64,000 nucleotides of DNA from Escherichia phage CJ20. Below, piece by piece: positions 2,217 through 29,764 of the stretch. Each line of letters opens with the position of its first letter. Within the stretch, counting starts at the first letter, position 1. The position numbers were made by a program, and so were the translations under genes. The notes under the pieces are model-generated. The model had not been told where the DNA came from and made no database searches. It saw only the letters and a list, made by a program, of their open reading frames with translations. The stretch is taken from sequence record MT533174.1. One strand, written 5' to 3'.

Positions 2217-2798
2217 ATGAAACCAACTACTGTTCTGCAAATCGCATACCTTGTATCTCAAGAATCAAAATGTTGCTCCTGGAAAGTGGGAGCTGTTATT
2301 GAAAAGAATGGCCGCATTATTTCTACAGGGTATAATGGTTCCCCTGCAGGTGGGGTTAACTGTTGCGAGCATGCGGAAGAGCAAGGTTGGTTACTGAATA
2401 AACCTAAACCTGTTCTCGTCCCTGGACATAAGCCAGAATGCGTGAGATTCGGTCAGGTTGACCGTTTTGTATTGGCGAAAGCTCATCGCGAAGAACATTC
2501 TGCATGGTCAAAGAACAACGAAATTCATGCCGAGCTTAATGCGATTCTGTTTGCAGCCAGAATGGGTTCATCAATTGAAGGCGCTACTATGTATGTGACG
2601 CTTTCTCCTTGCCCTGATTGTGCAAAGGCAATTTCTCAATCAGGAATCAAGAAATTGGTTTACTGTGAAACGTATGATAAGAATATTCCTGGTTGGGATG
2701 ATATCCTGAAGAATGCAGGAATTGAAGTGTTCAATGTGCCTAAGCGTAGTCTAGACAAATTGAACTGGGAAAACATTAACGAATTTTGTGGTGAATAA
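2217..2798 (+). CDS. cd: Deoxycytidylate (dCMP) deaminase
   Basis: 193 aa; near-identical along its length to recalled T4 Cd (MKxxTVLQIAYLVSQESKCCSWKVGAVIEKNGRIISTGYNGSPAGG...TLSPCPDCAKAI), zinc-binding CxxC/PCxxC motifs. Confidence 0.92.
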   Translation: MKPTTVLQIAYLVSQESKCCSWKVGAVIEKNGRIISTGYNGSPAGGVNCCEHAEEQGWLLNKPKPVLVPGHKPECVRFGQVDRFVLAKAHREEHSAWSKNNEIHAELNAILFAARMGSSIEGATMYVTLSPCPDCAKAISQSGIKKLVYCETYDKNIPGWDDILKNAGIEVFNVPKRSLDKLNWENINEFCGE

Positions 2799-3031
2799 TG
2801 AAATTTCGTCTAGTTAAATTTTCAGGGCTAAACTCAAAAGGCGAAAGCTTAGTAGCCTATTCAGTAGAATACAAAAAGTACTTTTTCTCTCGCTGGAAAT
2901 CGTACTATAAATCCGAGTGGGTTCGCGCCGAAACGAACTATAAAACGGTGCCTATTCTTGAAAATTGTCACCATCTATTGCGTGCTCTAAAAGAGCGTAA
3001 TGCAACCACTATTAAAACTGTTTTGGAATAA
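2798..3031 (+). CDS. Hypothetical protein (position of T4 31.2)
   Basis: 77-aa ORF between cd and gene 31. Confidence 0.5.
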   Translation: MKFRLVKFSGLNSKGESLVAYSVEYKKYFFSRWKSYYKSEWVRAETNYKTVPILENCHHLLRALKERNATTIKTVLE

Positions 3032-3033
3032 TT

Positions 3034-3333
3034 ATGATTTTAACTGAACAAGAAACAATTCGTCTTCGTGAAAAAGTCAAGACTATCTTGTCTGTTGGCT
3101 TTCATGAAGTTCTGTTTGAAAAAGCAGATGGCAGCGTTCGTCGTATGACTTGTACTCGCGACCTGGACCTGCTTCCATATAAAGAAATCCAGACCCCTGG
3201 ACCAGAAGCTCATAAAGAACCAGTTAGCTATATCCGGGTATTTGATACCAAGCTTAATGAATGGCGTTCATTCTGTTTCAATAAATTGATTTCCGTGAAT
3301 GGGCTACAGACCGAGACTCTGCTTGTCCTTTAA
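3034..3333 (+). CDS. Hypothetical protein (position of T4 31.1)
   Basis: 99-aa ORF between cd and gene 31. Confidence 0.5.
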   Translation: MILTEQETIRLREKVKTILSVGFHEVLFEKADGSVRRMTCTRDLDLLPYKEIQTPGPEAHKEPVSYIRVFDTKLNEWRSFCFNKLISVNGLQTETLLVL

Positions 3334-3358
3334 TGCTTCAAACGGTGCGTGTTATTAT
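3333..3358 (+). promoter_or_regulatory. Middle-promoter-like element upstream of gene 31 (TGCTTCA, 12 nt, TATTAT)
   Basis: MotA-box consensus at about -30 and -10 hexamer. Confidence 0.5.
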
Positions 3359-3388
3359 TAATACATGACCAAACAACATGGATTAAAT

Positions 3389-3712
3389 ATGGAATTACCA
3401 ATTAAAGCAGTAGGTGAATATATTATTTTGGTTTCTGAGCCAAAGCAAGCTGGTGATGAAGAAACTACGGCATCAGGTATCGTTATCGGAAAACTCCATC
3501 AGGGTGAAATCCCAGAGATGTGTGAAGTATTTTCGGTTGGTCCAGATGTTCCTGAAGGTTTCTGTGAAGTAGGTGATTTGACTCCTCTTCCGGTTGGCAA
3601 GATTGCAAACGTTCCACATCCTCTGGTTGCTCTGGGACTTAAGCAGGCTAAAGAAGTTAAGCAGAAATTTGTGACCTGCCATTATAAAGCTGTTCCTTGT
3701 CTTTATAAGTAA
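3389..3712 (+). CDS. 31: Co-chaperonin for GroEL (GroES analogue) needed for major capsid protein folding
   Basis: Strong similarity to recalled T4 gp31 (AVGEYxILVSEP...[14 protein letters not shown]). Start placed at second ATG because a MotA-box/-10 motif at 3333-3358 puts the transcript start near the first ATG (3365). Confidence 0.85.
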
Positions 3713-3721
3713 AATTAGCGT

Positions 3722-3729
3722 TATAAATA
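3722..3729 (+). promoter_or_regulatory. Late promoter core TATAAATA upstream of rIII
   Basis: Exact TATAAATA octamer. Confidence 0.4.
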
Positions 3730-3883
3730 ATAATATGGATTGGTTGATGTCATACAGAGCTTTGCTGGTGTATGGGGTTAGCTAATCCTAAACGGTGGAC
3801 TACAACTGAGAGACTTGCCGCAAGGAAGTGAAATTCAGAAGAACGTGTCCACCAAATATTCACCTCATATTGAGGCTTCTAAA

Positions 3884-4138
3884 ATGTCTTTAAACAAACA
3901 ATTACAACACGCTCTCGAACTGCAACGCACTGCATGGAATAACGGTCACGAAAACTACGGCGCATCTATTGATGTTGAAGCCGAAGCACTGGAAATTCTG
4001 CAGTATTTCAAACATCTTAACCCGGTTCAAACCGACCTTCGCGCAGTGCTCGAAGCAAAAGATGAACTGAAATTTGCTAAGCCGCTGGCATCTGCTGCCC
4101 GTAAAGCTGTTCGCCATTTTGTCGTAACCCTGAAGTAA
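3884..4138 (+). CDS. rIII: rIII-like lysis-inhibition accessory protein
   Basis: 84-aa frame immediately downstream of gene 31 as in T4; SD GAGG 8 nt upstream; TATAAATA at 3722-3729; sequence identity to T4 RIII only loosely recalled. Confidence 0.55.
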   Translation: MSLNKQLQHALELQRTAWNNGHENYGASIDVEAEALEILQYFKHLNPVQTDLRAVLEAKDELKFAKPLASAARKAVRHFVVTLK

Positions 4139-4200
4139 GCTGTAGGTGATTCGCTACCTTAGTGCGGCTAGAAAATCGAGGAGCCGTCGAACTGCCTGAT

Positions 4201-4711: not shown

Positions 4712-5080
4712 ATGAAAATCAATCTTAACTCATACATCAAAGGTAAAGACCACGACGGTTACAAAGCCATTGAAACTAAAGAAATGCAATGGCACTTGTA
4801 TAAAGAACAGTTTGAATTCGTTTCTTGTATGACTCCAGAAGGTCCTTCTGATGACTTCTCCTGGAAAATTATGGTAACAAACTTTTTTACTGGTGATACC
4901 TACGAACTGAAAACTTTGATTCTTGGCAAGATTCGTTGTAAGACCTATGAAGATGAAGAAACTGGTTATTCTGAAGATGTTACATGGTATCAAAATGGTC
5001 GCACCACTGCTGATGATTTGATTGAAAAAATGAAAGCTAAGGGTGAATTAAATTTAGATAATTGGATTAAAGTCGCATAA
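4712..5080 (+). CDS. Hypothetical early protein
   Basis: 122-aa ORF; SD CTGGAG; early promoter-like element 4641-4670. Confidence 0.55.
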   Translation: MKINLNSYIKGKDHDGYKAIETKEMQWHLYKEQFEFVSCMTPEGPSDDFSWKIMVTNFFTGDTYELKTLILGKIRCKTYEDEETGYSEDVTWYQNGRTTADDLIEKMKAKGELNLDNWIKVA

Positions 5081-5084
5081 AACA

Positions 5085-5124
5085 GTTTACTTTGGTACAG
5101 GTTATGATATTATAGACCTGTACC
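5085..5124 (+). promoter_or_regulatory. Early promoter with -10 inside a stem-loop (PeSL-like)
   Basis: GTTTAC 5085-5090, TATTAT 5108-5113, inverted repeat GGTACAGG (5094-5101) / CCTGTACC (5117-5124). Confidence 0.5.
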
Positions 5125-5151
5125 AACAAATGAAAACAACTGGAGAATAAA

Positions 5152-5517
5152 ATGAACTACATCAACTTTGAACGCAAATATGTTTCTAACTGCATCCCAG
5201 GTTCTTCTGAAGTTATTTGCCTGTGGAAACATAAAAATGGTTCAGTGTGCGAAATTGAACAGTATATGACTCCTAACTACGTTTATATGCGATTTGAAAA
5301 TGGTATCACTCTTTCAATCACTATGACCGGTTCAACCTTTAAAATTGCTTTAGATGATGATTTCCGTGAACGTGATTTAGGGACTCATCCTTGCTGGAAT
5401 GGTGTTAATCGCAAGCCGTTGGTTAAAACTTGGATTCGTCATATCCTGGGTAACAAAGCAAAACCTGAACACCTGGAAGCAATCTTTGATGTAGTTCTTA
5501 ATGAATTTGATATCTAA
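5152..5517 (+). CDS. Hypothetical early protein
   Basis: 121-aa ORF; SD CTGGAG; early promoter GTTTAC-17-TATTAT 5085-5113. Confidence 0.55.
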   Translation: MNYINFERKYVSNCIPGSSEVICLWKHKNGSVCEIEQYMTPNYVYMRFENGITLSITMTGSTFKIALDDDFRERDLGTHPCWNGVNRKPLVKTWIRHILGNKAKPEHLEAIFDVVLNEFDI

Positions 5518-5553
5518 TCTTAAACGGGGCGAAAGCCCCTTGAGGAAAATACT

Positions 5554-5841
5554 ATGTTTATGACTACTTACTTTGATACACGTAAAAATTTCTGTGAAGT
5601 TGTCTTTTCTAAAGCAAGCCCAGGCGTACCTGCTGATAAGCAACCAACTAAAGAATCCATTAAAAACTATGCGGATATAGTTTGCCCAGTTGAATTCAGG
5701 ACTGTTAATGGACGTGATACTCTGGCAATCACCAAGCTTAGCCGCGACATTGATATTGACCCAATTGCAGCACGTGAAGTCAATTCGTCTGATATTAATG
5801 GCGGTAATGTTAAATCACACGGTTTCCAGATGAGGTTCTAA
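5554..5841 (+). CDS. Hypothetical protein
   Basis: 95-aa ORF, SD GAGG upstream. Confidence 0.5.
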   Translation: MFMTTYFDTRKNFCEVVFSKASPGVPADKQPTKESIKNYADIVCPVEFRTVNGRDTLAITKLSRDIDIDPIAAREVNSSDINGGNVKSHGFQMRF

Positions 5842-6035
5842 TGAAACTATTTCTATCGCAAACCGTCCAGTTAAAAGGCGTAGGTATTCCTGGAATGATT
5901 TCTAAGGTCTTGCCTGCTTTTCAATTAGGCAATATTTCCATTAAAGAAGCATATGCAGTCCTGTGGGTTGACGGAACAGAAGACGTTCGCATGGGTGGTG
6001 AGTTGTCTGTAATCAAATGTTTAAAGCGAGGATAA
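5841..6035 (+). CDS. Hypothetical protein
   Basis: 64-aa ORF overlapping stop of previous ORF. Confidence 0.4.
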   Translation: MKLFLSQTVQLKGVGIPGMISKVLPAFQLGNISIKEAYAVLWVDGTEDVRMGGELSVIKCLKRG

Positions 6036-6036
6036 T

Positions 6037-6249
6037 ATGTTTAAGAAACTGATTCAGAAAATTTTGGGAACAGAAATGGTTGAAGTTACTTATCGCGTAA
6101 CTGACGTGAGTCCATGGGCCCGAAATATTGAACCATATACTAAAACAATTAAAATGCTGAAATCTGACGGTGGATTATCTATTAAAGACCGTCTACCTGG
6201 TTATGGTCATTGGGCTGATGTAGATATTATCAGCGTCAAAGATATTTAA
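6037..6249 (+). CDS. Hypothetical small protein, paralog A
   Basis: 70 aa; clearly paralogous to the adjacent 6259-6471 ORF (shared motifs EMVEVTYRV, IISVKD). Confidence 0.5.
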   Translation: MFKKLIQKILGTEMVEVTYRVTDVSPWARNIEPYTKTIKMLKSDGGLSIKDRLPGYGHWADVDIISVKDI

Positions 6250-6258
6250 GGAACCTTC

Positions 6259-6471
6259 ATGATTAAGAAATTATTTAAAAAGCTGTTTGGCTTGGAAATG
6301 GTTGAAGTTACTTATCGTGTTATTGATTTATCACCTCCATATGCTTGTGATGAAGATGCTATTAAGACTGTTGTAATGCGAAAAACATATCGCGGGCGGT
6401 CAATTAAATCCAGATTACCGGACCACGGTATGTGGTATGCAACCAAGATTATCAGTGTCAAAGATGTCTGA
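6259..6471 (+). CDS. Hypothetical small protein, paralog B
   Basis: 70 aa; tandem paralog of 6037-6249. Confidence 0.5.
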   Translation: MIKKLFKKLFGLEMVEVTYRVIDLSPPYACDEDAIKTVVMRKTYRGRSIKSRLPDHGMWYATKIISVKDV

Positions 6472-21938: not shown

Positions 21939-22607
21939 ATGATTGATAAGAACTATATTGAGGAAATTCGTGTCCTCGAGAAAAAAGAAGCCAAAGAAAA
22001 ATTAGCCAAATATGCAGCATCACTTGGTGTTGATGTTAAGAAAACAAAAACCTTTGATAATATGTTGACTGACCTGGAAGCAGGACTTAAAGCATTTGCT
22101 GACATGCCTATGCCTGATGATAATGAAGGCCTGAGCATCACTGACCTTATCGATGCCGATGATGAATTGTCAGGTGCTAAATTTGATGGCGATGAGTCAG
22201 CTAAAGAAGAAGCTAAACTCTTATTTGATGCTCCAACCGAAGCAAAGGTTGAAGTTGTTGAAATCGAAGAACCAACAGTTGTTGTGGTTGAAGAAGACGT
22301 TCCTTTTGTCGAAGAAAAGTTCGAAGCTGCTGTTGCTAAGGTTATCGAATCTGAAAAACCTGTATTTGCTCTGCCAAAAAACTTTAGTCCAAATCTTATG
22401 CTTATTGGCAAGAACCCTGGATTCTGTACTGTTCCATGGTGGATTTATCAGTGGATTGCCGAGACTCCAGATTGGAAAGAACGTCCAACTGCTTTCCCAC
22501 ATCCCACCGCGCACCAAACTCTATTTAGTTTGATTTATTACATCAATCGTAATGGGTCTGTTCTAGTACGAGAAACTCGTAACTCATCTTTTGTCACTTT
22601 AAAATAA
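21939..22607 (+). CDS. inh: Inh-like inhibitor of prohead protease
   Basis: 222 aa; size and position between uvsW and hoc as in T4; sequence identity not verified. Confidence 0.6.
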   Translation: MIDKNYIEEIRVLEKKEAKEKLAKYAASLGVDVKKTKTFDNMLTDLEAGLKAFADMPMPDDNEGLSITDLIDADDELSGAKFDGDESAKEEAKLLFDAPTEAKVEVVEIEEPTVVVVEEDVPFVEEKFEAAVAKVIESEKPVFALPKNFSPNLMLIGKNPGFCTVPWWIYQWIAETPDWKERPTAFPHPTAHQTLFSLIYYINRNGSVLVRETRNSSFVTLK

Positions 22608-22616
22608 GGGTTTATT

Positions 22617-23465
22617 ATGGCTTATACCGTAACTATTGCTCCTTTGGCGGCTACGGCCGTTATTGGAGCAACAACCAATTTCACTGCGACCGGTTCCGGT
22701 GCTGCAGCTGAAGGTACCGAATCATTTGTCTGGACCGTTGATGGCGTTCCTCAATCTTCTGTGACTGCTGCAATGGATTATGTTGCTGTTGGTCCAGCAG
22801 GCAGTAAGACTATTAAAGTTGTTGCAACAACTACACCAGCGGACGGCGGACCAGAAACAGCTGAAGCCGAAACAACTTTAACTATCCAGAATAAAACAAT
22901 GTCTGGTGTTTCTGTGACATTAACCCCAGCTTCGATTAATGTTCCGGAAGACACCATAGCTTCATTTAAAGCAGATGTAGTTGGCGCACCGAGTGGAGCT
23001 ACTTTTGCCTATTCTTGGAAGAAAGACGGTTCTCCTGTAGTTGGCACCACGGATACTTTAGCAATCGATACAAGCGCCGAAGGTTCCCAGTTAATTGAAG
23101 TTTCTGTTGTTGTATCTGCTACAGATTATAATCCTGTTACAGTTACCAAAACCGGTAATGTAACTATCACAGCCAAAGTCGCGCCAGTTCCAGAGGGTGA
23201 ACTACCTTACGTTCATCCGCTGCCAGTTCGTAATTCAGCTTATATCTGGTGTGGTTGGTGGGTTATGGACGAAATTCAGAAAATGACTCTTGCTGGGCAA
23301 GACTGGAAAACTGATGCTCCAGATAGCCCGTATTATTTGCACCGATATACCCTTCAAAAAATGATTACCGACTATCCAGAGGTTGATGTACAGGAATCTC
23401 GTAATGGTCGAATTATTCATCGCACCGCTTTAGAAGCTGGTATTATATACGATTACGTTTATTAA
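22617..23465 (+). CDS. hoc: Hoc-like outer capsid decoration protein (Ig-like repeats)
   Basis: 282 aa; T/A/V-rich repeated beta-type segments; position as in T4; shorter than T4 Hoc. Confidence 0.7.
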   Translation: MAYTVTIAPLAATAVIGATTNFTATGSGAAAEGTESFVWTVDGVPQSSVTAAMDYVAVGPAGSKTIKVVATTTPADGGPETAEAETTLTIQNKTMSGVSVTLTPASINVPEDTIASFKADVVGAPSGATFAYSWKKDGSPVVGTTDTLAIDTSAEGSQLIEVSVVVSATDYNPVTVTKTGNVTITAKVAPVPEGELPYVHPLPVRNSAYIWCGWWVMDEIQKMTLAGQDWKTDAPDSPYYLHRYTLQKMITDYPEVDVQESRNGRIIHRTALEAGIIYDYVY

Positions 23466-24174: not shown

Positions 24175-25182
24175 ATGTTTAAAAAATACAACAGCCTTGA
24201 AAATCACTATAACAACAAGTTCATTGAAAAGATTCGTCTACAAGGCTTCACCAGCGGTGAATGGGTAGCTCGTGAAAAGATTCATGGTACCAATTTTTCA
24301 TTAATTATTGAACAAGACAATGTGACATGCGCGAAACGCACTGGACCTATCCTACCCGCAGAAGATTTCTATGGTTATGAAATTGTATTAAAGAACTACG
24401 CAGATTCTATTAAATCTGTGCAGAAACTTTTGCAGGATATTAATTACCAGGCTTACCAGATTTATGGCGAGTTTGCCGGGGCAGGTATCCAGAAGAATGT
24501 GGATTACGGTGATAAAGATTTCTATGTGTTTGATATCCGCGTTACTAAGGAAGATGGCTCTGAATCCGTCCTGACTGACACACTTATGGAAGCCTTCTGC
24601 ATTATTCATAAGTTTAAAGTTGCTCCGCGCCTGGCTACCGGAAGCTTTGAAGACCTTATTAAACTCCCTAATGACCTGGATTCTGTGGTCCCTGATTACA
24701 ATTTTACAGTGGATAACGCAGGATTGACTACAGCAAATACCACTGATTTTGATGCAAAGGTGGAAGGTAAAGTATTCACTGCTGAAGGATTTGTATTAAA
24801 ACCTGATGTTCCTGCCTGGTTACCTAACGGCGAGCGTGTAGCGATTAAATGTAAGAACTCTAAATTCAGTGAAAAGAAAAAGTCTGATAAACCTATTAAG
24901 GCTGCTGTTGTGTTGTCCCAGGAAGACCTGGATATTTTATGGAAGTTCACTGATTATGTGACTGTTAACCGTATTAATAATGTTATCAGTAAGATTGGTG
25001 AAGTATCTCCGAAAGACTTTGGAAAGGTAATGGGTTTGACTGTCCAGGATATCCTGGAAGAAGCTGGTCGTGAAGGCCTTGAATTGACCCAGTCAGAAAA
25101 TCCTGTTGAAGTTAAAAAGCAACTTATCACAAATGTAAGAGAAACATTAAGACATGTTTGGATTGCATTAATTAGTGAATAA
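24175..25182 (+). CDS. rnlB: RNA ligase 2
   Basis: 335 aa; near-collinear with recalled T4 Rnl2 (MFKKYxSLENHYNxKFIEK...[17 protein letters not shown]...[19 protein letters not shown]); middle promoter motif 24051-24078. Confidence 0.92.
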
Positions 25183-25212
25183 AAAAAGGGCCGCAAGGCC
25201 CTTATTCTTTTT
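25183..25212. terminator. Bidirectional terminator between rnlB (+) and gp24 paralog (-)
   Basis: AAAAAAAGGGCCgcaaGGCCCTTATTCTTTTT. Confidence 0.6.
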
Positions 25213-26485
25213 CCAGTGGTGGAAGTTTAACACCAAGATAAGAACTCAATTGGCTTTGGTTAGCCATCTTATCCATATCAGCCCCATCAATAAGGCGGGC
25301 TTCTTTATCATCTTTAGCAACGGTGTAGGGGTTAGCTGTCAAAGCATAACGAGCTAACAGTGCAACCGTAGGCTGTAAGCTTTCAGGGTCAACAATAACC
25401 TTGAATTCCCCAACCGATGTATCACCCTCATCATCAACTTCGCTAAGCCCTTCCGTATAAGGCGCATAATACAAAGATGCGACCGTCTGACCCTCGCCCA
25501 TATCCGCATTTACGCCAACAATAACATAATCGCATGGACTATTCATATCTGCATAAAGAGGCAAACCGTTCTTCAGAACACCATAGGCCAATTCATCCTG
25601 GTCTTCCTTTTTCTCAACCCAGCCAGAAGCGGCTAAAATAGCTGCACAACGGGAAGAAGCAACCGCATATGTACCAGCAAACGAAGTCTGACGTTGAACT
25701 GCAGAATTCATTTCACACATATAATAATACAGGGTTCGTGCGCGGTCCTGTGCGTTATCATATTTCGGGTCAGTGAGATTCAACACACCTTTTTCAGAAA
25801 CACCTTGTACCTTGAAGCGAGAACTAACAGTAATAAGGGATTGCAATACATCCTTATTAATTTCCTCTGCCATTTGAATGCCGAGAATATTATCGATGAA
25901 GTCTGTTGCATCGAAACCGTTTGCTTCCAGGTCCTGAGCAAGCTCGACAGTTAAAGAAGTTTTCAACTTTCTGGATTTAACTTCAGTCTGCCATTTATCG
26001 ATACGGAAACCAGCTTCAGCAATTTCAGGATGCCCCTTTTCAAATTTATCAGTGAAAGCAGCATCTGACATCATTCTTATATGTCCAGCAGCAATGGCTT
26101 CAGAAATAACTTCACCTAAATCAGTTTCGAGTGTCCCGGCAAAGGGGGAAGCTTCCAGAACTTTGAATACAACGCTTTCAAACTGAAACATATCGCCGAC
26201 TGCATAAGCTTCGTCTTTGTTCGTAAATTCTGGGATATTCTTACGCTCGAACATACCAATCTGGCCCGCGAATGTCGCTCCACCAAGATATGTCATTTTA
26301 TCATCTGGGGTCAGAACACGAACACCATACAACGCTGCAACAGGCTGGGTAGTTTTCTGTTCGGCAACGAGTGCTTTAAAAATTCGTTTATTCGTGGCCT
26401 GGGTATAAGAAAGCAAATTAGGACGGGCGACCTGGTTGGCCGCCGTTAATGTTGATTCGTGAATTAGTGCGTTAATCTTTTGCAT
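25202..26485 (-). CDS. Capsid vertex protein gp24, divergent paralog
   Basis: 427 aa; roughly half the residues align with the adjacent gp24 ORF and with T4 gp24/gp23-fold motifs (QPVAALYGV, SRKLKT, TVELAQDLEANGF, EINKDVLQSLITVS, YAPYTEG, ANPYTVAKDDKEAR); ATG directly follows stop of upstream gp24 (TAAATG). Confidence 0.85.
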   Translation of the reverse strand: MQKINALIHESTLTAANQVARPNLLSYTQATNKRIFKALVAEQKTTQPVAALYGVRVLTPDDKMTYLGGATFAGQIGMFERKNIPEFTNKDEAYAVGDMFQFESVVFKVLEASPFAGTLETDLGEVISEAIAAGHIRMMSDAAFTDKFEKGHPEIAEAGFRIDKWQTEVKSRKLKTSLTVELAQDLEANGFDATDFIDNILGIQMAEEINKDVLQSLITVSSRFKVQGVSEKGVLNLTDPKYDNAQDRARTLYYYMCEMNSAVQRQTSFAGTYAVASSRCAAILAASGWVEKKEDQDELAYGVLKNGLPLYADMNSPCDYVIVGVNADMGEGQTVASLYYAPYTEGLSEVDDEGDTSVGEFKVIVDPESLQPTVALLARYALTANPYTVAKDDKEARLIDGADMDKMANQSQLSSYLGVKLPPLEKE

Positions 26486-27766
26486 TTACGCCTCATAAAT
26501 GATTGGCGGAAGTTTAACACCGAGCAGATAAGACATATTGCTCTGGCCGGCCATTAAATCCATATTAGTTGCATCGATAATACGAGCTTCTTTGTCGTCT
26601 TTAGCAACGGTGTAAGGGTTAGCTGAAAGTGCATATCGAACCATCAGGGAGATAGATGGCTGCAAACTGTCTGGGTCCACAATGACCTTAAACGCACCTA
26701 CGTGTTCTTCATCATCTAAGTCCAGGCCTTCGGTATAAGGAGCATAGAAGATTGAGCCTACGACTTCGTTTCCACCGTAATTTTCTTTAACGCCAACGGT
26801 TACATAATCCAATGGACTGTTAACATCACAGAATACAGGAAGACCATTAATCAAATAACCGTACGCTGTTTCAGGAAGCCATTGCTCGTCTTCAGGTTTA
26901 TGCTTCAGCCAGCCAGAACCAGCCAACATAGCAGCAACACGGCTAGAGGCAACAACAAAGGTACCGGAATAAGATGTAGTTTTCTGAATTTCGGAGTTCA
27001 TTTCGCAAACCAGTTCGTACAGTTTACGTGCACCTTCTGGAGCTGCATCATATGTTAAATCGATGGTGCCATTGTCAGAAACGCCAGTTACTTTATAACG
27101 CTTGGAAACGGTAATAAGAGACTGAAGAACATCTTTGTTAATTTCATCTGCCATAATAGTGGCAAGCAGGTCTTCCAAGAAAGCAGGAGCGTTAAACCCA
27201 TTTGCTTCCATATCCTGAGCAAGTTCAACAGTTAGTGCAGTTTTCAATTTACGTGTTTTAACCGGAGCATTCCATTTATTAACCTGGAATACAGCATTAC
27301 TAATCTCAACATCACCGGCTTCAAATTTCTCGGTGTGTGCCGCATCAGGAACCAAACGAATGGTTAATGCAATAAGACCTTCTTGCAGAACATCAGATAA
27401 CACTGTTTCTTTGGTCGATGCAAATGGATTATCAACCAGAGCTTTATAAACGGTATTTTGATATTTTACATATTCACCTTTAGCTACAGGCTGAGTGGCT
27501 GTAGTTAATTCTGGAATAGTTGTACGGTCTTTAGAACCGACTTCGCCACCATAAGTAGCACCAGTCTGGAAACTGAATTCATTATCAGGAGTAAGATATT
27601 TAACACCGTACAGAGCCGCAACTGGCTGGTTAGTACGTTGTTCAGCGATAATATCGCGGTAAATCAATTTGGTTGTAGCACGGGTCAAAGCAACAAGATT
27701 CGGGCGGCCCAAGGAGTTGCTGGTAGTGGTAGTTGACTCGCGCAGTAATTTGTTAATCTTTGCCAT
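26486..27766 (-). CDS. 24: Capsid vertex protein gp24 (T4-like ortholog)
   Basis: 426 aa; high similarity to recalled T4 gp24 (MAKINxLLRESTTTxSNSxGRPNLVALTRATTKLIY...); TATAAATA on - strand at 27793-27800. Confidence 0.92.
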   Translation of the reverse strand: MAKINKLLRESTTTTSNSLGRPNLVALTRATTKLIYRDIIAEQRTNQPVAALYGVKYLTPDNEFSFQTGATYGGEVGSKDRTTIPELTTATQPVAKGEYVKYQNTVYKALVDNPFASTKETVLSDVLQEGLIALTIRLVPDAAHTEKFEAGDVEISNAVFQVNKWNAPVKTRKLKTALTVELAQDMEANGFNAPAFLEDLLATIMADEINKDVLQSLITVSKRYKVTGVSDNGTIDLTYDAAPEGARKLYELVCEMNSEIQKTTSYSGTFVVASSRVAAMLAGSGWLKHKPEDEQWLPETAYGYLINGLPVFCDVNSPLDYVTVGVKENYGGNEVVGSIFYAPYTEGLDLDDEEHVGAFKVIVDPDSLQPSISLMVRYALSANPYTVAKDDKEARIIDATNMDLMAGQSNMSYLLGVKLPPIIYEA

Positions 27767-27792
27767 TTGCGCTTTCCTTTTGTGATATACTT

Positions 27793-27800
27793 TATTTATA
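27793..27800 (-). promoter_or_regulatory. Late promoter core TATAAATA upstream of gene 24
   Basis: Octamer on - strand about 27 nt upstream of gp24 ATG. Confidence 0.5.
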
Positions 27801-27806
27801 AAAGTT

Positions 27807-27836
27807 GTTTACAACCCGATTAAGATAAGACATAAT
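27807..27836 (+). promoter_or_regulatory. Early-type promoter (GTTTACA, 17 nt, CATAAT), duplicate of the 4641 element
   Basis: Motif and 24-nt identity with 4665-4688. Confidence 0.5.
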
Positions 27837-27872
27837 GATTTCATACTGAGTTACCAAACAATGGAGTCTAAA

Positions 27873-28154
27873 ATGAACAAAGTATCTTTCCTTCGGAATA
27901 CCTTTAAAAATCTGGAAATTGAAGTTGTTGCATTGGTCAACAAATACCCAAATGGTGTTAATGGTAATGCTCTGAACAAACTAGTTAAAAAATATGAAAA
28001 CTTAGCATATGATACTGATTTTTGGTGGAATGGTAATTATTCTACTCACACCAAAGACAAATCAGGTAACTGGTTGAAACTTCAAGAGAACAGTGTTAAT
28101 TTCAGAGACCTCATCAAGCGCCGGGTAGAAGTTCATTTAAATGGTATGGTATGA
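27873..28154 (+). CDS. Hypothetical early protein on the opposite strand between genes 23 and 24
   Basis: 93 aa from ATG 27873 (SD GGAG inside the track's 27861 start); early promoter-like GTTTACA-17-CATAAT at 27807-27836; terminator 28161-28190. Confidence 0.5.
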   Translation: MNKVSFLRNTFKNLEIEVVALVNKYPNGVNGNALNKLVKKYENLAYDTDFWWNGNYSTHTKDKSGNWLKLQENSVNFRDLIKRRVEVHLNGMV

Positions 28155-28160
28155 AAACAA

Positions 28161-28190
28161 GAAAGGGACCTCAAGGGTCCCTTTTTATTT
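28161..28190. terminator. Bidirectional terminator between ORF 27873 (+) and gene 23 (-)
   Basis: GAAAGGGACCtcaaGGGTCCCTTTTTATTT with A-rich 5' flank. Confidence 0.6.
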
Positions 28191-28204: not shown

Positions 28205-29764
28205 TTAAATTCCCTTAACATATACACGTCTAAAGTAACCGTTCAAGCCGAGGCTGTTAACGATGTCCGGCATACCGTTTTGAATACGCTTGGTCGGAGC
28301 CTGAGCTGCCGGGTCAGCGAACGGGTTAATACCGATACCGTAACGGGTTTTGAAGCCCATAACCGGCTGGAAGTTTTTCGGGTCAGAGCCACGCAGCGGG
28401 GTCAGTGCAACATATGGTGCGTAGTAGATACCAGCATCCATTTCGTTAGCGCCTTTGTAACCGATGGTGAAGTAATCTGCGCGAGCATACTGGTCGATGT
28501 AGACACGGTATTTGCCACCCAGAACACCAGCGAACACAGCTTTAGTGGTGTCAACGTTGAAACCTTTACCCAGACCCTGAGCAGCATAAGATACGGAGGT
28601 ATCAACTGCAGCCAGTACGTTAACTACGTTACGGGAAGCGATGATGAAGTTACCTGCACCACGACCGGTCTGACGAGCGATTTCAGCGGCTTCTTTATCA
28701 ATCTGGAACAGTAAAGCTTTGAAGCTTTCACCAGCCCAACGAGCACCACGGATATCAATCGGGTCCTGGAAGTCAAACACACCAGCTTTAGCGCCAACGG
28801 TGTTGGTCATACCAGATTTACCAACCTGAGCGGAGTAGTTAATCCAATCGATAACTTCACGGTTGATTTCCAGCATAATTTCGGTAGCCAGAATACCACT
28901 CAATTCGGCATCAGCATCCATACCATGAACAGCGCGCAGGTCCTGTGCCAGTTCGATGGAGTAGCTTGCTTTCAGCTGACGGGATTTAGCTTCGATAACT
29001 TGTTTATCGATACGGAAGCCCATTTCGTTCCACGGGTTATCAGTAGAACCGTTAAAGCCTTCCTGCAATTCGGCGATAGAAGTAGCCATACCTTCAGCGA
29101 TTTCTGCCAACTTACCAGCTTCGAGCAGTTTGGTAACTTCAGCGTCAAGTTTAGCAGCATCAGTAGCACCAGCATCAACGGTTACAGCTTCAACAGCCTG
29201 GTAGTGTGCAGAACCGGTTGCTTCGAAGAAGTGAGAATAAATTTTACCAACAGTAAGCAGTTTGCCTGCAGCCAGTGCTTCGAAAGTTTTAGCAGCGCCC
29301 TGACCAGAGAACATAGCGTTCGGAGCATACATCGGGTGGAAAGCTTCTTTAGCACCAGATGCAACAGGGTCTTTACCGTAAACTGCACGCAGGGCAAATA
29401 CCTGGCCAGTTGGGTTGTTCAGAGGCTGTACGCCACAAATATCAAACGCAATCAGATGCGGGATAGCACGACGAACCATACCCATAACTGCCGGCCCAAT
29501 CTGAGTTACTGCACCAGAGGTCTGGCCAGCAGCGATATTGGTAGCATCATAACCATGGTCACCACCGATTTCAGCTTCAGTCAGGAAAGAACCAAATGCT
29601 TCGGAGATTTTTTCGTCACGGTATTCAGGAGCGGTCAGGATATCTTGTTCCTGGTTTTCAAAGATTTTAGCGATGATAGCTTGTTTAGAAGCACCAACGA
29701 TTTCAGGAAGAGCTTCGTTTTCCAGCAGAGCGGACCATTTTTGAACTAATGCATTCTTTTTCAT
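28205..29764 (-). CDS. 23: Major capsid protein
   Basis: 519 aa; very high similarity to recalled T4 gp23 over most of its length (SKQAIIAKIFENQE, GQTSGAVTQIGPAVMGMVRRAIP, NPWNEMGFRIDKQVIEAKSRQLKA, YFRRVYVKGI). Confidence 0.96.
   Translation of the reverse strand: MKKNALVQKWSALLENEALPEIVGASKQAIIAKIFENQEQDILTAPEYRDEKISEAFGSFLTEAEIGGDHGYDATNIAAGQTSGAVTQIGPAVMGMVRRAIPHLIAFDICGVQPLNNPTGQVFALRAVYGKDPVASGAKEAFHPMYAPNAMFSGQGAAKTFEALAAGKLLTVGKIYSHFFEATGSAHYQAVEAVTVDAGATDAAKLDAEVTKLLEAGKLAEIAEGMATSIAELQEGFNGSTDNPWNEMGFRIDKQVIEAKSRQLKASYSIELAQDLRAVHGMDADAELSGILATEIMLEINREVIDWINYSAQVGKSGMTNTVGAKAGVFDFQDPIDIRGARWAGESFKALLFQIDKEAAEIARQTGRGAGNFIIASRNVVNVLAAVDTSVSYAAQGLGKGFNVDTTKAVFAGVLGGKYRVYIDQYARADYFTIGYKGANEMDAGIYYAPYVALTPLRGSDPKNFQPVMGFKTRYGIGINPFADPAAQAPTKRIQNGMPDIVNSLGLNGYFRRVYVKGI

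Follow-up and report, generated by a model that had tools for sequence, protein, structure and literature searches.

Organization of the gene 24 locus

The sequence analyzed here (the window) comprises 64,000 nucleotides of Escherichia phage CJ20 (MT533174.1), in which the head genes follow the order 20-21-22-23-(small ORF)-24a-24b and converge with rnlB. Gene 23 (28,205–29,764, minus strand), which encodes the 519-aa major capsid protein and has a terminator-like hairpin at 28,162–28,184, lies just upstream of gene 24a, or 24(1) (26,486–27,766, minus strand). The product of the latter, hereafter copy A, is a T4-type capsid vertex protein of 426 aa, the ortholog of T4 gp24. Gene 24b, or 24(2) (25,202–26,485, minus strand), hereafter copy B, encodes a second gp24-family protein of 427 aa, a member of a clade of B-type paralogs described below. 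The neighboring rnlB gene (24,175–25,182, plus strand), encoding RNA ligase 2, is convergent with copy B.

An exact match to the T4-type late promoter motif TATAAATA was found at 27,793–27,800 (minus strand), 27 nt 5' of the start codon of copy A. This motif occurs 21 times in the whole window, against 4.4 matches expected, and a scan of the window detected no match within or between 24a and 24b. A Shine-Dalgarno-like AGGAAA (27,773–27,778, minus strand; read as ...AAAAGGAAAGCGCAAATG) is placed 6 nt 5' of the copy A ATG. At the junction of the two genes, which reads GAGGCGTAAATG on the minus strand, the TAA stop codon of copy A directly abuts the ATG of copy B (gap 0), and a GAGG ribosome-binding site for copy B (26,491–26,494, minus strand) is embedded in the final codons of copy A, an arrangement of translational coupling. 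The same junction sequence is present in phages VR7 and JS98, and the S16 version is GAGGCGCCTTAATG. Directly after the stop codon of copy B, a bidirectional hairpin terminator, AAGGGCC-GCAA-GGCCCTT (25,186–25,203), with a 7-bp stem containing five GC pairs and T-runs on either strand, serves both this transcription unit and the convergent rnlB. Copy B lies in the late head cluster, downstream of gene 23 and of a late promoter, lacks a separate promoter and is translationally coupled to copy A. These results indicate that A and B constitute a single late operon consisting of the TATAAATA promoter, A, the internal GAGG, B and the hairpin terminator. Codon bias was slightly lower in B than in A in all six genomes compared; the difference is small, a hint that B is perhaps made in smaller amounts.

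Both copies are gp24-type proteins

A and B align with 56% identity and 75% positives, with 10 gap positions in 428 aligned columns (E=4e-173), a similarity that far exceeds chance. Matches to T4 gp24 (PDB 1yue) extended along the entire length of both copies and scored 653 bits for A and 494 bits for B; in a trimmed alignment, identity to T4 gp24 was 70% for A and 56% for B. By contrast, gp23 chains scored 45–50 bits against A and B, far under the gp24 scores, and gp23 of the window matched A with only 28% identity over 247 residues. Both copies matched Pfam PF07068 (Gp23 superfamily; cut-off, 24.4 bits) at about 327 bits, and both matched PHROG 138. On these scores, A and B are assigned to the gp24 branch and not to the gp23 type. 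The ORF coordinates and the alignment bear out what a sequence-only reading of this DNA had described: two full-length, adjacent and coupled gp24-like ORFs, the upstream one T4-like (as also judged from a clade with T4 gp24 at 99% bootstrap) and the downstream one more distant yet alignable throughout.

Inspection of the ORFs revealed no internal stop codon in either A or B. The N-termini, MAKINKLLRE|S in A and MQKINALIHE|S in B, both keep the gp21 cleavage motif, and the gp21 protease motif L/I-x-E|S was present in all 20 N-termini examined (10 from A and 10 from B). Judging from this motif, the gp21 prohead protease most likely removes a 10-residue N-terminal peptide from both proteins. In addition, 119 conserved positions are common to A and B.

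In a Foldseek search with an AF2 model of copy B, the top matches were 5vf3_a, 7vrt and 1yue (E=5e-40 to 5e-33, TM about 0.53), with gp23 at 1e-16. The model is moderate (pLDDT 60), enough to assign a fold and too weak for interface analysis; for this reason, the fold assignment of B leans mainly on sequence. Like 1YUE, B is predicted to adopt an HK97-type fold that includes an insertion domain, and the same architecture is predicted for A from its sequence.

A and B separated long ago and are both under purifying selection

In a neighbor-joining tree with bootstrap, which is the sole basis for the deep placement of B, the B-type proteins formed a monophyletic clade with 100% bootstrap support, and copy B of the window fell inside it. 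A, T4 gp24 and the A-partner of phage FBB1 formed a clade without B at 99% bootstrap. The position of B relative to the gp24 proteins of Jiaodavirus and of Acinetobacter phages received 16–52% support. Tajima relative-rate tests gave 47 versus 41 (p=0.52) and 40 versus 42 (p=0.83) unique changes, indicating that A and B have changed at equal rates after splitting. Third-position identity between A and B was 42%, synonymous sites are saturated, and comparison of A with B detected no gene-conversion tract.

In close comparisons, dN/dS was 0.04–0.06 for A and 0.017–0.06 for B; thus, purifying selection is strong on A and B alike. Between the window and JS98, B is the more conserved copy (95% identical, against 90% for A). 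Across nine genomes, A-A and B-B identities were correlated (r=0.89), and within-pair A-B identity remained steady at 52–57%. By these measures, B is placed as an old paralog lineage that split from A no later than the time when the Tevenvirinae genera radiated. Because dN/dS is low, the 119 positions are conserved in both proteins and the L/I-x-E|S motif persists, both genes are clearly to be regarded as intact and functional.

The pair is inherited as a unit in at least four genera

Loci carrying B were found in Gaprivervirus, Dhakavirus, Gelderlandvirus and Roskildevirus, in a Klebsiella phage and in metagenomic contigs. The order gp23-A-B was conserved in every B-carrying locus examined, with an A-B junction of −4 to +1 nt (loci compared: the window, VR7, JS98, S16, Cronus, four metagenomic contigs and the Klebsiella phage). 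Similarly, A was followed by B with a coupled junction in 17 of 17 IMG/VR loci. At 80% or more, 91 records match A and 91 match B. Roughly 900 phage records have A alone. No case of B without A was encountered among the B-carrying loci and phage records examined. That A is found alone and B never is suggests that B may be an accessory partner of A, one that since the split has been inherited alongside it, always directly downstream and translationally coupled.

The gene pair itself is already known, as it carries annotations in dozens of genome records from several genera: 24a/24b in JS98, 24(1)/24(2) in VR7, 'capsid vertex protein I/II' in VR5, VR20, VR25 and VR26, and 'head vertex protein I/II' in CGG4-1, with further pairs in S16, STML-198, Cronus and FBB1. 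All these pairs have the same genes, order and coupled junction as the window, with no substantive difference; the VR7 proteins are 97% (A) and 98% (B) identical to those of the window. Phage UPEC01 is about 96% identical to the window at the nucleotide level in this region, and the window represents another Gaprivervirus-like genome. A 'gene 24 duplication in JS98' is reportedly noted in a 2004 abstract on that phage. Our literature search retrieved no discussion of the gene 24 pair and no virion proteomics, mutant or structure for two-copy phages.

T4 itself (gp24 structure, PDB 1YUE; in situ, 5VF3, 7VRT and 7VS5) resembles the window in that A and B are both full-length homologs of its gp24, and in the location downstream of gene 23 and next to rnlB, the late promoter and the L-x-E|S cleavage motif. 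In T4, rnlB directly follows the single gene 24, and in the window it is likewise convergent with copy B. The two differ in that T4 has one gene 24, whose product occupies all 11 pentameric vertices, whereas the window has two genes, and copy B bears 12 fixed substitutions.

B-type proteins carry fixed substitutions near an intra-pentamer contact described in T4

The 12 fixed substitutions of the B type are seen in almost no other gp24. Copy B of the window has the B-state residue at T4 positions 26, 32, 34, 36, 56, 57, 68, 204, 267, 328, 335 and 415, and with these substitutions and its abutting downstream position it belongs to the B-type clade. Seven of the 12 (A26S, T32N, L34R, Y36F, K56R, Y57V and T68G) lie within residues 26–68. 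In T4 gp24, residues 26–29 form a beta-strand pairing with the I-domain linker of an adjacent subunit of that pentamer, and linker 1 runs from about residue 60 to residue 81 (PMC9546572). Since these seven substitutions cluster at the intra-pentamer contact region of T4, as located by T4 numbering and the published description of contacts rather than by measured contacts, we infer that B may form homopentamers.

Small indels near T4 residues 239, 291–299 and 350 also set copy B of the window apart from A. The 291–299 loop varies in length among all gp24 proteins, and the A/B loop indels differ within the B clade. A distinctive 'AP loop' was considered as a signature of B and rejected, given that the indels are non-uniform in the B clade and that 291–299 is variable in all gp24s. 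Comparison of the A partners of two-copy phages with single-copy gp24s revealed no residue that consistently separates them; by sequence, the A partners resemble the usual gp24 of single-copy phages.

Possible roles of the second vertex protein

We consider it probable that, of the two ancient gp24 paralogs encoded by this late operon, A builds the standard vertices and B forms specialized pentamers at some vertices. Vertex heterogeneity and a specialized vertex, which the sequence-only reading had put forward, are both plausible. Both would be functional head proteins produced late in infection. A would act as an ordinary T4 gp24 ortholog, building standard pentameric vertices as in T4, and B as an accessory, specialized vertex subunit whose own pentamers would take up some of the prolate head's 11 non-portal vertices. 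The presence of B in the virion, its homopentamers and the vertices that it would occupy are what we infer from the comparisons above. A precedent for such a division is the paralogy of gp23 and gp24, likewise a duplicated capsid gene with a copy specialized for some lattice positions (PMC9958956); there, however, the proteins are about 20–28% identical and their roles, in hexamers and pentamers, respectively, are proven to be distinct, whereas A and B are 56% identical and their division of labor is proposed from sequence. Some points weigh against specialization of B. The 55 copies of gp24 in T4 do not differ significantly in conformation from one vertex to another (PMC9546572), so that a second vertex protein answers no evident structural requirement. 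In addition, the head appears to be of ordinary size, because the genomes of these phages are 158–176 kb, as in T4.

A bolder and distinctly more tentative version of this proposal is that the head has two chemically distinct kinds of five-fold vertex, with B pentamers in one symmetry class of the prolate head and A elsewhere. Candidate classes for B include the lone apical vertex opposite the portal and one of the two rings of five.

Alternatively, A and B might co-assemble into mixed pentamers, both being present in every vertex, with the coupling fixing their ratio. Translational coupling is kept in every locus, as is typical of subunits of one complex, the 119 core positions are retained by both proteins, and the lack of B without A would be expected if B could not assemble by itself. 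Nevertheless, we regard this arrangement as rather unlikely: two subunit types cannot be accommodated in a symmetric fixed ratio within a five-fold ring, the changes in B flank the intra-pentamer strand/linker contact (residues 26 and 68) and look more like a matched B-B interface, and the A partners lack compensating changes relative to single-copy gp24, although a fit to B would predict them.

Somewhat less probable still is redundancy, in which the second gene would serve for dosage or as a back-up, with either gene able to build all vertices. The sequence-only reading had allowed for a standard, documented feature with redundant function; the first half holds, as the annotations in JS98, VR7, VR5 and others show, and the evidence goes against the second. 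Although both proteins are full-length and of the gp24 type, with the same processing motif and expression signals, and many relatives, including T4, have one gene, the pair is older than the split of at least four genera with dN/dS of 0.06 or less in both copies, and redundant copies rarely last so long. Moreover, the equal counts of 91 and 91 records do not point to loss of A or of B in the nearest relatives, B has its 12 lineage-specific fixed substitutions and is more conserved than A, and B is never the sole copy, whereas random loss would be predicted to affect either one.

A role in evading immunity, in which B would be a decoy or an unrecognized alternative vertex protein against host sensing of the capsid vertex, seems improbable. 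This idea, the decoy form of which was raised by the sequence-only reading, draws on the finding that T6 gp24 is required for type IV Thoeris to be activated (PMC13243611), by which gp24 is needed to trigger at least one defense system. However, B evolves slowly (dN/dS 0.017–0.06), unlike an arms-race protein; both A and B retain Ala380 together with the RYAL motif around it, with Ala in 23 of 24 B-type sequences; A is encoded in the same operon and would therefore remain sensed despite B; and the fixed position and coupling indicate a structural partnership.

Finally, a recent tandem duplication in this lineage followed by rapid divergence of a relaxed or decaying downstream copy, akin to the 'tandem duplication with one divergent copy' that had initially been proposed, might be suggested by two adjacent genes of 426 and 427 aa that are collinear over their whole length, but it is refuted by the tree, dN/dS, co-divergence and relative rates and is very improbable: A is nearer to T4 gp24 (70%) than to B (56%), B lies outside the A and T4 clade at 99% with equal rates in A and B, distant genera also have B orthologs, whose B-B divergence matches that of A-A, and B is under strong purifying selection with A-B synonymous sites saturated. 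The disabling mutations in the second copy that had been envisaged as a refutation of its role were likewise not borne out, as B is an intact gene and the better conserved of the two.

Implications for prolate head assembly

A second vertex protein, coupled to the first, has been retained under strong selection in at least four genera, and the model phage T4 is without one. Were B the mark of a specialized vertex class, this would bear on how prolate heads tell their vertices apart during assembly, on the activation of the prohead protease by vertex attachment and on the tuning of capsid stability. It would also be relevant to phage engineering, as JS98, S16 and the VR/UPEC phages are candidates for therapy or biocontrol. 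The existence of a defense system that depends on the vertex protein is a second, less likely, reason for interest in the pair. Should B pentamers indeed occupy one symmetry class of the head, the pair would provide a natural example of paralog-encoded vertex specialization in a tailed phage, and the B-type gene would count as an ancestral gene for much of Tevenvirinae that T4 and its close relatives lost secondarily.

Two gene 24 homologs in one operon

The window carries two adjacent gp24-like genes, as a reading from the sequence alone (the sequence-only reading) had claimed; both lie on the minus strand. Copy A (24a or 24(1); 26486..27766, 426 aa) is the upstream gene, with the major capsid protein gene gp23 (28205..29764) just upstream of it, and copy B (24b or 24(2); 25202..26485, 427 aa) is the downstream gene. 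Both matched Pfam PF07068 and PHROG 138, with full-length homology to T4 gp24, the capsid vertex protein (PDB 1yue). Copy A is indeed T4-like (70% identity to T4 gp24 in a trimmed alignment; 653 bits to 1yue), and copy B is more distant (56%; 494 bits) but alignable throughout, being 56% identical to A over its full length (E=4e-173). Identity between gp23 and A was only 28%, over 247 residues. In a Foldseek search with a B model of moderate quality (AF2, pLDDT 60), T4 gp24 chains ranked best (E=5e-40 to 5e-33), far above gp23.

At the nucleotide level the region shares 96.4% identity with Escherichia phage UPEC01 and 92-95% with the VR7/VR20/VR25/VR26 group of Gaprivervirus. The sequence-only reading had named a standard documented feature of the lineage, redundant in function, as one outcome that would refute it, and as to documentation this holds: the public record of VR7 calls the genes 24(1) and 24(2), that of JS98 (Dhakavirus) 24a and 24b, those of VR5/VR20/VR25/VR26 'capsid vertex protein I/II', and that of Salmonella phage CGG4-1 'head vertex protein I/II'. 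B-type genes (orthologs of copy B) are also found in Gelderlandvirus (S16, STML-198, STP4-a and Melville), in Erwinia phages Cronus (filed under Roskildevirus), IT22 and FBB1; further examples come from Proteus phage ABTNLPp2, Klebsiella phage CP-p-KP-21072 and numerous metagenomic contigs. The gene pair is a documented property of several genera and not novel as a finding; no discussion of it was found in the literature searched, whose reach did not extend to the original JS98 papers.

At the A-B junction, GAGGCGTAAATG on the minus strand, a GAGG ribosome-binding site lies within the final codons of A, and the TAA stop is directly followed by the ATG of B without a spacer, in agreement with the coupling first noticed. 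A T4-type late promoter motif, TATAAATA (27793-27800, minus strand), lies 27 nt upstream of the A ATG, and an AGGAAA ribosome-binding site precedes A. The window holds 21 copies of this motif where 4.4 would be expected, and a scan of the window found none inside or between the two gp24 genes. A bidirectional hairpin terminator (25186-25203) follows the B stop and is common to the convergent rnlB. Together, promoter motif, junction and terminator define A and B as a translationally coupled, bicistronic operon, its late timing being predicted from the promoter motif. Codon adaptation to gp23 usage put B a little below A in six of six genomes (0.37 versus 0.44 in the window).

An ORF of 97 aa, opposite in strand to genes 23 and 24a and sited between them (27861-28154, plus), is accompanied by a sigma-70-like promoter match (10/12; 27808-27836, plus) and followed by a hairpin terminator (28160-28186). 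It corresponds to hypothetical protein ORF190c in VR7 and orf173 in JS98, whereas T4 has the segD homing endonuclease at this spot. Downstream of rnlB, two ORFs of 222 and 282 aa (21939-23465, plus) are the size of JS98 inh (672 nt) and hoc (849 nt), whereas in VR7 the annotation there shows one ORF with collagen repeats and one that is Hoc-like (its locus 1-1450), suggesting local mosaicism downstream of rnlB among otherwise close relatives. In S16 (4803-5366), the Klebsiella two-copy phage (5562-6107), Jiaodavirus (5311-5859) and one metagenomic contig (2612-3148), the last gp24 gene is separated from rnlB by a DprA-like gene, which is absent from the window, VR7, JS98 and T4. In Erwinia-type phages carrying both copies, B is followed not by convergent rnlB but by a same-strand gene of ~335-346 aa (in Cronus labelled 'tail fiber protein') and then a short Hoc-like one (Cronus 4827-6342; two further loci, 4890-6427 and 2634-4140), so lineages differ in what bounds the late operon downstream.

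Phylogeny and co-inheritance of the two copies

Pairwise alignment and phylogeny, proposed in the sequence-only reading, set B apart from the A and T4 gp24 clades. In a neighbour-joining tree of 87 representative gp24 sequences (200 bootstraps), rooted on Krischvirus and Slopekvirus gp24, B-type proteins formed a single clade with 100% bootstrap support. Copy A of the window fell in a 12-member clade (100%) nested in a 40-member clade with T4 gp24 (97%), itself nested in a 45-member clade that adds the A-type partner from Erwinia phage FBB1 (99%), and none of the three contained a B sequence. This nesting indicates that A is the T4 gp24 ortholog and that B branched earlier. Attachment of B relative to the Jiaodavirus and Acinetobacter phage gp24s had support of just 16-52%. 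The single Jiaodavirus gp24 (Klebsiella phage 15882-6-4, 4001-5281), the closest single-copy relative of B, is 64% identical to both window A and window B; weakly supported in its placement, it appears to be slowly evolving, near the tree base and not B-type. Tajima relative-rate tests counted 47 versus 41 unique changes in A and B (p=0.52), and 40 versus 42 with a second outgroup (p=0.83); these equal rates ruled out a long-branch artefact of a fast copy in the placement of B. Third-codon-position identity between A and B was 42%, the longest identical nucleotide run was 17 nt, and their nucleotide comparison revealed no gene conversion tract.

In close comparisons with dS below saturation, dN/dS lay at 0.04-0.06 in A, 0.017-0.06 in B and 0.05-0.15 in gp23. 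The window copies were 90% (A) and 95% (B) identical to those of JS98, 85% and 84% to those of S16, and 64% and 67% to those of Cronus. Across nine pair-carrying genomes, A-A and B-B identities correlated (r=0.89) with similar magnitudes, and within-pair identity was 52-57% throughout. Paralogy, as first proposed, stands; a recent duplication with a fast-diverging downstream copy is refuted by the tree, the equal rates, the low dN/dS of B, which reflects purifying selection, and the co-variation of A-A and B-B identities. On these comparisons, A and B are ancient conserved paralogs. The original observation is confirmed and its evolutionary interpretation corrected.

Gene order was gp23, A, B in all B-carrying loci examined (ten from isolates or metagenomes including the window, plus 17/17 from IMG/VR, some genomes being in both sets), and A stop to B start ranged from a 4 nt overlap to 1 nt spacing. 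In the phage collection, A and B each reached 80% identity or more in 91 records, counted as totals rather than record by record. Roughly 900 records there carried an A-type gene only; B without A was never found in the collection or the B-carrying loci examined. T4 and other single-copy lineages are scattered among the A partners: window A is 70% identical to the T4 protein versus 64% to Cronus A, and any two gp23 proteins from T4, the window, S16, Cronus and Jiaodavirus were 82-89% identical. Two histories fit: B may predate the radiation of these genera, with several later losses, or an A-B cassette may have moved between lineages. In Klebsiella phage CPRSA (OM971648.1 40349-41425), the gp24 match is in three pieces with two 'capsid vertex protein' features, and in Enterobacter phage EBPL a homing endonuclease is annotated beneath the match; gene 24 may be interrupted there by a mobile element, a phenomenon distinct from the A/B pair.

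Residues that set copy B apart

While 119 positions are conserved in both groups, 12 carry B-fixed residues almost absent from other gp24s (T4 numbering: A26S, T32N, L34R, Y36F, K56R, Y57V, T68G, T204I, Y267F, K328N, E335Q and L415Y), seven of them within residues 26-68. In T4 heads, a parallel beta-interaction links gp24 residues 26-29 to an I-domain linker of the adjacent same-pentamer subunit, linker 1 comprises about residues 60-81, and residues 11-20 and linker 2 (143-154) touch neighbouring gp23 hexamers (PMC9546572). The prohead protease gp21 cuts after an L/I-x-E|S-type motif, taking ten residues off T4 gp24 (PMC9546572); the motif is kept in 20/20 A and B N-termini examined. A partners differed from single-copy gp24s at one conservative site, and at none under a stricter test. 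Small loop indels were rejected as a mark of B, those between window A and B being inconsistent across the B clade.

A possible accessory vertex protein

Both copies are very probably functional head proteins. The intact coupled operon, long maintenance of both copies by purifying selection, constant association of B with A, and unchanged A argue for a B that is specialised rather than spare. We somewhat favour a picture in which A would do the standard T4 gp24 job and B would work beside it as an accessory, specialised vertex subunit. B-fixed changes fall on both partners of the intra-pentamer contact (the 26-29 strand and linker 1), with none matching in A, which makes self-pairing likelier: B would pair with B, in B5 pentamers, instead of mixing with A. 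Mixed A/B pentamers, which agree with translational coupling and the dependence of B on A, are less likely, fitting poorly with five-fold symmetry and an unchanged A.

A defence-related role for B has one real hook, since the vertex-protein mutation A380V lets T6 escape type IV Thoeris, with immunity restored by the wild-type version (PMC13243611). However, Ala380 is kept in A and B inside an invariant RYAL motif, B evolves very slowly, and A is still there for sensing. Val occupies T4 position 380 (window B residue 381) in one of 24 B-type sequences, the other 23 having Ala, as do 101 of 104 other ingroup gp24s (A-type partners and single-copy). Plain redundancy, the other half of the 'standard feature' objection, is contradicted on several counts: the pair is old, B has fixed differences, close relatives give no sign of having lost either copy, and B is never the sole copy.

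For the accessory subunit, a role in the timing of maturation is conceivable but entirely speculative, by analogy with the T4 prohead, where activation of the gp21 protease is believed to be set off by gp24 joining the vertices (PMC9958956). Separate B-only vertices are a tentative proposal, which we consider less likely than not. The non-portal vertices of a prolate head fall into three non-equivalent classes, a single one at the apex and two five-membered rings. If B5 pentamers do form, these phages would build heads with two kinds of vertex.
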